DNA of 17,587 bases from IMG/VR virus record IMGVR_UViG_2660238360_000004. The stretch is one strand, 5' to 3'. The position numbers were made by a program, and so were the translations under genes. Shown here piece by piece: positions 13,574-17,587 of the stretch (position 1 is its first letter; every line of letters starts with the position of its first letter). The notes beneath the pieces are model-generated. The model was given only the letters and a program-made list of their open reading frames with translations. It was not told where the DNA came from and ran no database searches. Source of the stretch: a virus. Taxonomy: Duplodnaviria > Heunggongvirae > Uroviricota > Caudoviricetes.

Positions 13574-16500
13574 TTTGGGGATTGATGCGGCAGAGTTTAA
13601 AAATGAAATTCCCCGTATCAAAAACCTTCTGAATGGTGCAGCCAGCGATGCAGAACGGTCTTCTGCCCGTATGCAGCGTTTTATGGAGCGTCAGACTCAG
13701 GCCGCCCGGCAGACAACGCAGGCGGCGTCTTCGGCTGCAACAGCCGCATCCGTCCATGCGCAGACGGTGGAGAAGAACGCACAGGCTCATGAACGCATGG
13801 CCCGCGAGGTGGAGAAAACCCGCCAGCGTATGGAGGCACTGAGCCAGAAAATGCGCGAGGAACAGGCGCAGGCCATGGCTCTGGCGGAGGCTCAGGATAA
13901 AGCAGCTGCTGCGTTTTATCGTCAGATTGACAGTGTGAAACAGGCCAGTGCGGGGCTGCAGGAATTACAGCGTATTCAGCAGCAGATCCGACAGGCCAGA
14001 AACAGTGGCGGGATTGGTCAGCAGGATTATCTGGCGCTGATTTCTGAGGTTACGGCGAAAACCCGTGTTCTTACGCAGGCTGAGGAAGAGGCTACCCGAC
14101 AGAAAGTGGCGTTTATCCGTCAGCTTAAAGAGCAGGCAACCCGCCAGAATCTTTCTTCTTCTGAGTTGCTTCGTGCTAAGGCTGCCCAGCTGGGGGTAAG
14201 CAGTGCTGCAGAAGTGTATATCCGCAAAATGGAGCAGGCAGGAAAAGCCACGCATTCGCTGGGTCTGAAAAGTGCAGCGGCCCGCCAGGAGATAGGCGTT
14301 CTGATAGGTGAACTGGCCCGCGGCAATTTAGGGGCGCTGAGGGGATCCGGGATAACGCTGGCTAACCGTGCCGGATGGATAGACACTCTGATGTCACCGA
14401 AAGGCATGATGCTTGGCGGGGTTATTGGCGGTATTGCCGCGTCCGTCTATGGTCTGGGTAAAGCCTGGTATGACGGTCAGAAGGAGGGGGAAGAATTTAA
14501 CCGCCAGTTGTCGCTGACGGGGCATTATGCCGGAGTCACTGCCGGGCAGCTGTGGACGCTCAGTCGTGCTATTTCCGGGAATGGTATCACGCAACATGCT
14601 GCAGCCGGTGTGCTGGCTCAGGTGGTGGGGAGTGGTGCATTTCGTGGAAACGATATCGGTATGGTGGCGAGAGCTGCCGCACAGATGGAGCGATCGGTTG
14701 GCCAGTCGGTCAGCGATACCATAAATCAGTTTAAGCGGCTGAAGGATGATCCTGTAAATGCCGCGAAGGCTCTGGACAATGAGCTGCATTTTCTTACTGC
14801 CACTCAGCTTGAGCAGATACGTGTCCTTGGGGATCAGGGACGGTCCAGTGATGCTGCACGGATAGCCATGTCTGCACTGGCAGAGGAAACCGGTCGGCGT
14901 ACTGCGGATATTGATAATAACCTCAATGCGCTTGGCAGTACGCTGAAGTATCTGTCTGATTTATGGAGTCGTTTCTGGGATGCGGCCATGAATATTGGTC
15001 GTGAAGACTCGCTGGATGAACAGATTGCCGCTTTACAGGAGAAAGTGTCGCGGGCGAAAAGACTCCCCTGGACGGCATCATCTTCTCAGGTTGAATACGA
15101 TCAGCAGCGTCTTAACGATCTTCAGGAGAAAAAACGCCAGAAGGATTTGCAGGATGCAAAAGAGCAGGCAGAGCGGAATTATCAGGAGCAACAGAAACGA
15201 CGTAATGCTGAAAATGCTGCACTGAACCGGATGAATGAAACGGAAGCAGCACGACATCAGCGTGAAATTGCGCGTATTAATGCCATGCAGTACGCCGATC
15301 AGGCTGTCAGGGATGCAGCGATACAACGTGAAAATGAACGTTACGAGAAAGCCCTGGCATCCGGTAAGAAAAAAACACGCGAAACCCGTAATGATGAGGC
15401 CACCCGGTTATTGCTGCAGTACAGTCAGCAACAGGCACAGGTGGAAGGACAGATTGCTGCTGCAAGACAGTCAGCAGGCATTGCCACTGAAAAGATGACA
15501 GAAGCGCATAAACAGCTTCTGGCTCTGCAGCAGCGCATCAGCGATCTGGACGGGAAAAAACTGACGGCAGATGAAAAGAGTGTGCTGGCCCGTAAAGATG
15601 AACTGATTCAGGCACTGACGCTGCTGGATGTAAAACAGCAGGAGCTTCAGAAACAGACGGCACTCAACGATCTGAAGAAAAAAACAATTCAGCTGACCAG
15701 TCAACTGGCTGAAGAAGAGCTCGCTCAGCGTCAGCAACATGACCTGGATATCGCCACGGTGGGTATGGGTGATCAGCAGCGGCAGCGATATCAGGTACAA
15801 CTGAGTCTTCGCCAGAAATACCAGCAACAGCTGGAGCAGTTGAGGCGGGATAGTGAGCAGAAAGGGACATATAACACGGATGACTACAGAAAGGCCGAGC
15901 AGGCGCTGACGGAGAGCCTGAACCGACAACTGAATGAGAATCGCCGTTACTGGCAACAGCTTGAAGTTGTGCAGGGTAACTGGAAAAACGGAGTCCTGCG
16001 TGCATTTCAGGATTTTACCGTGGATGCAGACAATACGGCAGGAACAGCAGAACAGGTGTTCTCGTCAGCCTTCAGCAACATGGGAAATGGCCTGGCAACT
16101 TTTGTCACTACCGGCAAACTCAACTTCAAATCCTTCACCTCTTCGGTGCTGTCAGATATGGCGAAAATCCTGGCGCAGGCAACCATGATGAAATCGATAA
16201 AAGGGATTGGCAGTGTACTGGGATTTGATCTCAGCAGCCTTTCCCTGAATGCCAATGGGGGGATTTATCAGTCTGCTGATTTGAGTCGTTACAGTGGCAC
16301 GGTGGTTAACCGTCCGACGTTTTTTGCTTTTGCAAAAGGCGCGGGTGTGATGGGGGAAGCGGGACCTGAAGCCATTCTGCCACTGCGTCGTGGTGCTGAC
16401 GGTAAGCTGGGGGTTGTGGCGGATATTGGTGGTTCAGGTATGGCGATGTTTGCCCCGCAGTACAACATCGAGATCAATAACGATGGCACGAACGGGCAGA

Positions 16501-16610
16501 TAGGTCCGGCTGCCCTGAAGGTGGTTTATGACCTTGGGAAAAAAGCGGCAGCGGACTTTATGCAACAGCAGGCCCGTGATGGTGGTCGGTTAAGTGGAGC
16601 ATATCGGTAA
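13545..16610 (+). CDS. Tail tape measure protein, lambda gpH family
   Basis: 1021 aa from an ATG with GGAGGTG 6 nt upstream. N-terminus DQIANLVIDLGIDAAEF matches lambda gpH VGDLVVDLSLDAARF. Long Ala/Gln/Glu/Arg-rich coiled-coil centre. C-terminus NIEINNDGTNGQIGPAALKVVYDLGKKAAADFMQQQARDGG matches lambda gpH VVINNDGTNGQIGPAALKAVYDMARKGARDEIQTQMRDGG. Confidence 0.95.
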   Translation: MDQIANLVIDLGIDAAEFKNEIPRIKNLLNGAASDAERSSARMQRFMERQTQAARQTTQAASSAATAASVHAQTVEKNAQAHERMAREVEKTRQRMEALSQKMREEQAQAMALAEAQDKAAAAFYRQIDSVKQASAGLQELQRIQQQIRQARNSGGIGQQDYLALISEVTAKTRVLTQAEEEATRQKVAFIRQLKEQATRQNLSSSELLRAKAAQLGVSSAAEVYIRKMEQAGKATHSLGLKSAAARQEIGVLIGELARGNLGALRGSGITLANRAGWIDTLMSPKGMMLGGVIGGIAASVYGLGKAWYDGQKEGEEFNRQLSLTGHYAGVTAGQLWTLSRAISGNGITQHAAAGVLAQVVGSGAFRGNDIGMVARAAAQMERSVGQSVSDTINQFKRLKDDPVNAAKALDNELHFLTATQLEQIRVLGDQGRSSDAARIAMSALAEETGRRTADIDNNLNALGSTLKYLSDLWSRFWDAAMNIGREDSLDEQIAALQEKVSRAKRLPWTASSSQVEYDQQRLNDLQEKKRQKDLQDAKEQAERNYQEQQKRRNAENAALNRMNETEAARHQREIARINAMQYADQAVRDAAIQRENERYEKALASGKKKTRETRNDEATRLLLQYSQQQAQVEGQIAAARQSAGIATEKMTEAHKQLLALQQRISDLDGKKLTADEKSVLARKDELIQALTLLDVKQQELQKQTALNDLKKKTIQLTSQLAEEELAQRQQHDLDIATVGMGDQQRQRYQVQLSLRQKYQQQLEQLRRDSEQKGTYNTDDYRKAEQALTESLNRQLNENRRYWQQLEVVQGNWKNGVLRAFQDFTVDADNTAGTAEQVFSSAFSNMGNGLATFVTTGKLNFKSFTSSVLSDMAKILAQATMMKSIKGIGSVLGFDLSSLSLNANGGIYQSADLSRYSGTVVNRPTFFAFAKGAGVMGEAGPEAILPLRRGADGKLGVVADIGGSGMAMFAPQYNIEINNDGTNGQIGPAALKVVYDLGKKAAADFMQQQARDGGRLSGAYR

Positions 16611-16939
16611 TGGAGACGTTTCACTGGAAAGTGCGCCCGGATATGAATGTGGTATCAGAGCCGAAAGTGGTGACAGTGAAGCTGGGCGATGGTTATGAAC
16701 AGCGTCGTGCGGCGGGACTGAATAACCAGTTGTCGACTTACAGCGTGACGATACGTGTTCGTAAATGTGAACACCCATCTTTAAAAGCCTTTCTGGAACG
16801 GCACGGTGGCGTCCGCGCATTTCAGTGGACGCCACCTTATGACTGGAAGCCGATCAGGGTGGTTTGTCGTAAATGGTCGGCAAGCGTGGGGGCGTTGTGG
16901 GTAACCATAACGGCAGATTTTGAACAGGTCGTGGCATAG
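16610..16939 (+). CDS. gpM-like minor tail protein
   Basis: 109 aa. Start overlaps the tape-measure stop (TAATG). METFHWKVRPDMNVVSEPKVVTVKLGDGYEQRRAAGLN... is collinear with recalled lambda gpM (MKTFRWKVKPGMDVASVPSVRKVRFGDGYSQRAPAGLN; also WTPPY and FEQVV). Confidence 0.92.
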   Translation: METFHWKVRPDMNVVSEPKVVTVKLGDGYEQRRAAGLNNQLSTYSVTIRVRKCEHPSLKAFLERHGGVRAFQWTPPYDWKPIRVVCRKWSASVGALWVTITADFEQVVA

Positions 16940-16948
16940 GAGTCTCTG

Positions 16949-17308
16949 ATGCAGGATATTCCACAGGAAACACATCATGAGACGACACGCCTCACTCAGT
17001 CAGCCCAGGTGGTGCTCTGGGAAATCGATCTGACAGTGGTCGGTGGAGAACGTTATTTTTTCTGTAATGAGCAGAACGAAAAAGGTGAGCCGATCACCTG
17101 GCAGGGGCGACAGTATCAGGCGTATCCCATTCAGGGGACGGGATTTGAACTGAACGGCAAGGGCAGTGCTGCCCGTCCGACACTGACGGTTTCTAACCTG
17201 CACGGCATGGTCACCGCGATGGCGGAAGACCTGCAGAGTCTGGTCGGAGGAACGGTGGTCCGGCGTAAGGTTTACGCCCGTTTTCTGGATGCGGTGAACT
17301 TCGTCAAC
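16949..17308 (+). CDS. gpL-like minor tail protein, 5' portion only (cut by the assembly gap)
   Basis: The first 120 codons are near-identical to recalled lambda gpL (MQDIRQETLNECTRAEQSASVVLWEIDLTEVGGERYFFCNEQNEKGEP...VVRRKVYARFLDAVNFVN). The frame then runs into the N-run at 17309-17318. Translation beyond the gap in the track is an artefact. Confidence 0.9.
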
Positions 17309-17318
17309 NNNNNNNNNN
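17309..17318. other. Assembly gap (run of 10 N)
   Basis: Ten consecutive N characters. Sequence on either side is unrelated: a gpL homologue before it and a hok-type locus on the other strand after it. Confidence 0.99.
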
Positions 17319-17335
17319 TGCTCCCCGCACAACGG

Positions 17336-17488
17336 CTACTTCTTCGGTTCGTAAGCGAGAACAGCCTTAAACTCAATATTACGTTCCTTTACGGTGAACT
17401 CACACAGCGAATCTCCGACCAGAAGCGTAAATCCCAGCACCGTTAAACACAGCACTATGACTGCCGCAAGGGCATATTTCGTCAGCAT
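17336..17488 (-). CDS. hok: Hok/Gef-family type I toxin (small membrane peptide)
   Basis: 50 aa, [50 protein letters not shown]. Single N-terminal transmembrane helix and the conserved family pattern ...LCE...E...AYE at the C-terminus. The 83-aa track ORF is an in-frame upstream extension through the leader. Confidence 0.8.
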
Positions 17489-17587
17489 GTTTATATTGCC
17501 TCCATGCGAAGAAGGGACTACCATCCAAATTGTTCGGGTTTGGAGTGGCAGCCCCAGGGTTGATAGAAATATCTCCTGGGGCTTCAT

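Follow-up and report, generated by a model that had tools for sequence, protein, structure and literature searches.

The join between a lambdoid prophage and the hokE/sokE locus across a run of 10 N is probably a product of scaffolding

The window, the 17,587-nt stretch of DNA held in IMG/VR as virus record IMGVR_UViG_2660238360_000004, ends with a phage tail gene that runs into a short run of N and, on the far side, a small toxin gene on the opposite strand. Does this prophage carry a type I toxin-antitoxin locus in place of its remaining tail genes, or have two unconnected pieces of an Escherichia coli chromosome been set side by side? The initial annotation described a gpL homologue that meets 10 N after codon 120, followed by a minus-strand Hok/Gef gene with part of its leader, and both descriptions were borne out by profile searches (Table 1). 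It left open two accounts of the arrangement. Either the gap hides L, K, I, and J and the hok locus is far away, or the tail module has been deleted and a defective prophage carries an addiction module. We conclude, with a probability of about 0.9, that the prophage-hokE join is an artefact of scaffolding (at best, the two pieces were placed without order) and does not represent a biological junction.

Table 1. Features on either side of the N run, in window coordinates
Feature	Position	Strand	Basis
gpM-like minor tail protein gene	16610..16939	+	PF05939 Phage_min_tail, E=1e-39, profile 1-108/108
gpL-like minor tail protein gene, first 120 codons	16949..17308	+	PF05100, profile 1-92/206
Run of 10 N	17309..17318		Scaffold gap placeholder between two contigs
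First 17 nt of hokE 3′ UTR	17319..17335	-	Comparison with 214-4, K-12, and KSC64
hokE toxin gene, 50 codons plus stop	17488..17336	-	PF01848, identity to K-12 HokE, K-12 alignment
Partial hokE mRNA leader, 99 nt	17489..17587	-	Rfam RF01794
Candidate sokE promoter, TTGCCT-17 nt-TACCAT	17496..17524	+	Read from the sequence; inferred only
sokE antisense RNA gene, 56 of 60 nt	17532-17587	+	Transfer of K-12 b4835 (607733-607792)

Upstream of the gap, the plus strand carries lambdoid prophage late genes, arranged as in lambda. Public gene calls comprise a DUF1441 small-terminase-like protein, a GpA-type large terminase, a portal, a ClpP-protease/capsid fusion, and a decoration protein, followed by Z, U, the tail tube gene, G, T, the tape measure gene, and M. 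The window covers the right side of a lambdoid prophage of the Qin family and holds its lysis, terminase, portal, and head genes together with the tail genes as far as gpL. The tape measure gene and the gpM-like gene both lie upstream of gpL, and the latter is the last complete prophage gene 5′ of the break. The best complete-genome matches to the whole window were 97.9 to 99.1% identical over 17.3 kb, and all of them ended at position 17308. In the two relatives whose flanks were examined (99.0% and 97.9% identical), gpL is followed by K-I-J-lom-stf(-tfa)-pinQ-ydfK-ynfT and a truncated ydfJ, with stf interrupted by IS1 in one of them. From stf(-tfa) through pinQ-ydfK-ynfT-ydfJ, the right end of both matches that of the K-12 cryptic prophage Qin, including the attachment site (ydfJ). 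While K-12 Qin lacks head and tail genes, the window prophage keeps them up to the contig end. The hok gene that Qin natively carries, in its early region, is hokD rather than hokE.

Several further features of this prophage group were observed. Many close complete-genome relatives match the window only from position 482 onward, which indicates a mosaic boundary at about this position, close to the window's left end and preceding a lysozyme-like ORF (528-1061). The closest complete relatives, H46 (NZ_CP006636.1) and H77 (NZ_LR881940.1), contain ISEc23 (IS66-like) inside the region that matches the window, and the large terminase of NZ_CP006636.1 is annotated twice. Further relatives carry IS2 or IS3; prophages of the window's type are often IS disrupted in other strains. 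Prophage-borne hok genes do exist in Qin-type prophages, where they occupy the early region and not the tail end: in K-12 Qin, hokD (L137, 20120-20275) adjoins relBE and differs from hokE.

The gpL-like ORF extends from its ATG for exactly 120 codons up to the N run, which is the only one in the window. In a Pfam profile search, its product matched PF05100 (Phage_tail_L; E=8e-43) over the N-terminal part of the profile alone, and no match over all 206 positions was obtained from the window. The 120 residues fit the lambda gpL family and the gene occupies its place in a lambda-like order, Z-U-V-G-T-H-M-L. The difference from lambda gpL is the C-terminal 112 residues, which the window record lacks because of the gap and which are present in a sibling assembly (L013, described below). 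The shortfall is an artefact of the record, as the identical prophage in that sibling covers PF05100 positions 1 to 206; the truncation is caused by the scaffold gap and not by mutation. Consistent with this, the 30-mer before the gap continues with GGAAACAG, corresponding to gpL codons 121 to 123, in all of at least 120 IMG/VR contigs. No exact match to the junction, taken across the 10 N, was found in IMG/VR. A chimeric ORF of 165 residues spanning the N run was found in one contig, JRSP01000059.1 (GCA_001413885.1), a 1.36-Mb scaffold that is identical to the window over the 10.6 kb compared.

The sequence after the gap starts at position 17319 and contains a minus-strand ORF with its stop codon at 17338-17336. 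The product belongs to the Hok/Gef family (PF01848 HOK_GEF; 32.1 bits against a cut-off of 22, profile positions 1-42 of 42) and is 100% identical to K-12 HokE (b4415). An ungapped 620-nt alignment to K-12 contained four differences, each a synonymous change in the hokE coding region, which aligns without gaps to K-12 607836-607988. The post-gap fragment of 268 to 269 nt was found in 5407 of 5426 complete E. coli genomes; 601 records were at least 99% identical, and the RefSeq records listed annotate the fragment as hokE. Adjacency of hokE and ybdK was found in 4892 of 5426 complete genomes.

The same neighbourhood follows in the scaffold. Past the window end, JRSP01000059.1 encodes, after hokE, the Pfam families GCS2 (YbdK), DUF1158, YjbR, nitroreductase, MS channel, amino-acid permease, and ACR_tran (CusA), and the families, order, and sizes match ybdK-ybdJ-ybdF-nfsB-ybdG-pheP-cusA-cusB. 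This neighbourhood is also annotated beside hokE in strain 214-4. The flanking core genes and the identity to K-12 HokE together indicate that the hok gene is native chromosomal hokE and not prophage cargo. A prophage-borne addiction module was not found, since the sole link between hokE and the prophage is the 10-N gap and the far side of the gap is native chromosome. With K-12 hokE/sokE (b4415/b4835), the locus shares the toxin, a leader/Sok region without differences over the stretch aligned, the neighbour ybdK, and the IS186 insertion site at the contig end. None of the differences is biological: the window cuts the 3′ UTR at the gap and the leader and promoter at the window end. On the K-12 map, Qin occupies 1.632-1.653 Mb and hokE lies at 0.608 Mb, a separation of ~1 Mb.

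What follows gpL was also compared among sibling assemblies. Siblings were defined as NCBI drafts that encode the window's exact tape-measure protein; they have neighbouring accessions (JRRI to JRSS, GCA_0014129xx-0014138xx). All ten sibling loci compared had 0 mismatches to the window over the 13.7 kb before the break. In nine of the ten, gpL is broken by an N run at nt 300 (n = 5), 360, 362, or 364 (n = 2), and the gap is 10 N long in eight and 567 N long in one. The nine broken siblings continue after the N run into nine different chromosomal neighbourhoods. With gene names read from the Pfam lists, these were GST/amino-acid permease/YncE/TonB-receptor; purU-like/YchJ/H-NS/thymidine kinase; PflA/PflB/FocA/YcaO; TomB/Hha; NlpD/Pcm/SurE/TruD; Mhp/LacI/LacZ; KdsA/PrmC/PrfA/HemA; ABC-transporter/TesA-like; and Glyco_hydro_4/PTS/IbpAB. 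The tenth sibling (L013; JRRI01000005.1) is gapless. Here, the same 360 nt lead into a 232-residue gpL that matches PF05100 over positions 1-206 of 206, and downstream of it come K (NlpC/P60), I, J, Lom, and the side tail fibre (stf). Ten mutually inconsistent neighbours (the window's included) alongside one intact version suggest arbitrary or erroneous scaffolding at a repeat and are unlike a deletion. The initial annotation had named an intact gpL followed by K, I, and J, with hok unrelated to them, as the arrangement that would speak against a real join, and this is the arrangement present in the tenth sibling.

The sibling breaks (L004-L012, locus positions 13705-13778) fall into two classes, one at nt 300 (five siblings) and one at nt 360-364 (four siblings and the window). 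The existence of two classes despite identical upstream sequence is probably due to different assembly parameters or to co-resident prophage copies.

A probable reason why the two contigs end where they do can be given for both sides of the gap. On the hokE side, the contig end lies in the IS186 target GGGG-N6-CCCC, inside the 10-bp target duplication GGATTGCTCC. Read in the sense of hokE, the window runs ...TAG CCGTTGTGCGGGGAGCA and then enters the N run. In strain 214-4, the counterparts of these bases are followed by ATCC and then by the IS186/IS421 terminal repeat CATAAGCGCTAACTTAAGGGTTG, and the 10-bp duplication recurs at the other end of the IS. The K-12 annotation places IS186B from 608007, 18 nt past the hokE stop codon, and in IS-free KSC64 the IS186 target is uninterrupted (GCGGGGATTGCTCCCCGC). 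An IS186-type element (IS186/IS421) is present at the exact hokE junction in 1732 of the 5426 complete genomes. The post-gap contig thus begins 4 nt from the boundary of a multi-copy IS, which is typical of a short-read contig end, and a break at this site suggests that IS186 is present in the source strain.

On the prophage side, we compared the sequences flanking the break across E. coli genomes. The 720 bp after the break (gpL codons 121-232 and the start of K, taken from the intact sibling) matched 14,684 places, full length in 4337 genomes, with a median of 3 and a maximum of 15 per genome. The 720 bp before the break (the end of the tape measure gene, M, and gpL codons 1-120) matched 8,458 places, full length in 1782 genomes, with a median of 2 and a maximum of 7 per genome. 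The break point is therefore the entry into a stretch that is commoner and higher in copy number among E. coli genomes than the sequence preceding it. Because the post-break stretch is more widely shared, it is probably multi-copy in the source genome as well, so that the assembler could not extend the contig. Insertion of IS186 inside gpL was also considered as the cause of this break and was rejected, as the gpL sequence at this point lacks a GGGG-N6-CCCC target and the siblings do not all break at the same nucleotide.

We propose the following sequence of events. In a scaffolded short-read draft of an E. coli genome, the prophage contig stopped in gpL at codon 120, and the scaffolder set a 10-N gap and attached a second contig that ends at the IS186/IS421 site just downstream of hokE. 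This second contig is core chromosome, carrying hokE/sokE, ybdK, ybdJ, ybdF, nfsB, ybdG, pheP, and cusA. In the real genome, gpL is most likely intact, with K, I, J, lom, and stf after it, an arrangement seen in the gapless sibling, and hokE lies elsewhere, by the K-12 map at the distance given above. Judging from the siblings, K, I, J, and the 3′ half of gpL would be present in the source strain. A scaffolder based on read pairs could in principle have had real links between the two contigs. Of the first account given in the initial annotation, the distant location of hok is retained, but the gap does not simply hide L-K-I-J, as each of the two contig ends stops at a repeat.

Two other explanations have to be weighed against an artefact of scaffolding. 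The least probable, and in our judgement a highly improbable one, is a real rearrangement in which the part of the tail module past gpL codon 120 was lost by deletion or inversion, perhaps via the IS186 copy beside hokE, to leave a defective prophage fused to hokE/sokE; this is essentially the second account of the initial annotation. The gap is a minimal 10 N, and some scaffolders use 10 N for very short estimated gaps. Large deletions in evolved E. coli B lines are also documented to end at the IS186 beside hokE (hokE_large deletion, PMC4557228), and hok genes do occur in prophages, hokD of K-12 Qin being one example and a preprint reporting hok enrichment in prophages (10.1101/2025.08.07.668861). 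However, nine siblings with the identical prophage attach nine other loci and a tenth is intact, and these cannot all be real. The junction is absent from all 5426 complete genomes, in none of which do gpL codons 1-120 and hokE lie within ~800 bp of each other. The gpL break site lacks the IS186 target, and its position varies (nt 300 versus nt 360-364) as expected for repeat-limited contig ends and not for a single insertion or deletion point. Finally, hokE is in its native chromosomal neighbourhood and close relatives have the complete tail module, neither of which fits a deleted tail module in a defective prophage. If the rearrangement were real, an IS186-associated fusion at gpL codon 120 would put a chromosomal type I toxin-antitoxin locus in a defective prophage remnant.

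It is also very unlikely that the scaffold order is correct and that the gap is large. The prophage would then sit beside entD/IS186/hokE, and the 10 N would stand for >11 kb holding the remainder of L together with K, I, J, lom, stf, tfa, the att end, and IS186. Such an order corresponds to the first account of the initial annotation. Neither contig end alone contradicts this order, and the matching of complete genomes, which joins pieces up to ~9.3 kb, would miss such an arrangement. The close relatives examined (n = 2) nevertheless sit at ydfJ, the Qin site, and not near hokE. Moreover, ybdK flanks hokE in 4892 genomes, and on its opposite flank the three genomes examined have an IS186-type element or entD and no prophage. 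The ten mutually inconsistent neighbours that the scaffolds give for the same contig end argue against this order as well. Scaffolding of two unrelated contig ends thus remains the explanation that we favour.

The two genes brought together in the window, hokE/sokE and gpL, are both already known and unremarkable. The window end and the gap cut the toxin locus on either side. Within the window, RF01794 matched model positions 48-157 at 41.5 bits, under the gathering threshold of 59, since the window end cuts the leader. In the source scaffold (L014, 10532-10687; window equivalent 17480-17635), the match covered 157 of 157 positions at 84.4 bits (gathering threshold 59; E=2.5e-19). From this alignment, the hokE mRNA would start ~48 nt past the window end, with the 5′ 48 nt of the leader and the promoter also beyond it. 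The match of the RF01794 model ("sok antitoxin") is to the strand of the hok mRNA leader, where it stops at the hok AUG, and not to the Sok-encoding strand of the K-12 annotation. Strand calls made from RF01794 need care.

The antisense gene was placed by transfer of the K-12 annotation, for which window and K-12 coordinates sum to 625324 in the ungapped alignment. The transferred sokE occupies 17532-17591 on the plus strand, with its last 4 nt past the window end, and is identical to K-12 over the 56 nt inside. The initial annotation had predicted Sok on the plus strand at or beyond the window end; the strand was correct, but most of the gene (56 of 60 nt) lies inside the window. Identity to K-12 sokE and the full-length RF01794 match together identify a cis-encoded antisense gene opposite the toxin leader. 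In its predicted fold (-24.6 kcal/mol; z = -2.8), the 60-nt Sok RNA begins with a single-stranded 5′ tail, which leads into a GC-rich hairpin with U-rich sequence after it. The candidate sokE promoter lies 7 nt upstream of the transferred Sok 5′ end and agrees with 8 of 12 consensus positions; a scan for sigma-70 promoters (at least 9 of 12 required) and terminators gave no hits across hokE/sokE. The promoter and terminator of Sok are thus putative assignments from K-12 homology and reading by eye.

Two further ORFs overlap the toxin locus. A 42-codon TTG-initiated ORF (17528..17400) overlaps hokE in another frame and is a candidate mok equivalent. An 83-codon ORF that starts at 17587, in frame with hokE, is called in the public record with a weak PF01848 match. 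This longer form is probably a gene-caller artefact; RefSeq annotates the 50-codon hokE. In the family mechanism, translation of the small inner-membrane toxin Hok, which is coupled to that of mok, is prevented when Sok pairs with the leader (10.1101/2025.08.07.668861). By the established hokE/sokE scheme, the cis-encoded antisense Sok binds the mRNA leader, resulting in a translation block and degradation of the message for the small membrane toxin. HokE overexpression has been reported to be toxic, and the chromosomal hok loci tested gave no post-segregational killing, according to the summary in the same preprint (10.1101/2025.08.07.668861).

No fbi fold-back element or terminator was found downstream of hokE in the window, where 17 nt of 3′ UTR precede the gap. 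In the KSC64 3′ UTR, AAGGCACCUGC was read by eye as complementary to the 5′ end of the leader, GGGUGCCU, and the fold-back stretch and a terminator-like hairpin lie ~50-100 nt past the hokE stop codon. In IS186-bearing genomes, these 3′ elements are displaced by ~1.3 kb. An IS186 at 18-23 nt past the stop codon, if present in the source strain, would probably separate the fbi-like element and terminator from hokE, as in K-12. Inactivation of chromosomal hok loci by IS elements was reportedly described by Pedersen and Gerdes in 1999. The locus resembles hok/sok of plasmid R1, the prototype of post-segregational killing systems, in its families (PF01848 and RF01794, the latter at 84.4 bits over the full-length source sequence) and in its layout, with a leader, an antisense gene upstream of the toxin start, and, in IS-free relatives, a 3′ element complementary to the 5′ end. 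In contrast with the plasmid-borne prototype, hokE/sokE is chromosomal, and its 3′ element is here probably displaced by IS186.

IS-free KSC64 (L136, NZ_CP018840.1, 1020-1675) contains two tandem hokE/sokE units ~500 bp apart in the entD-ybdK interval, and their HokE proteins differ at one residue (A8V). The tandem units fit the median of 2 places per genome observed for the hokE fragment. IS186-bearing 214-4 and K-12 have a single hokE copy, and IS insertion may accompany loss of the second unit.

The limits of the window itself bear on how hokE came to be counted with the prophage. A minus-strand ORF of 137 aa without a Pfam match has its stop codon at position 1, and the 83-aa ORF in the public record has its ATG at position 17587. 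As both ends fall on gene boundaries, the window appears to be a provirus call that was trimmed there, which suggests that the provirus prediction continued past the N gap and included one additional gene.

Provirus calls on scaffolded drafts can cross N gaps and pick up unrelated chromosomal genes in this way. Here, such a join would miscount hokE as prophage encoded and label a probably intact tail module as deleted. Surveys of hok or toxin-antitoxin enrichment in predicted prophages (such as the IMG/VR-based one in 10.1101/2025.08.07.668861) could be inflated by joins of this kind. Regions spanning N runs should be split prior to interpretation.
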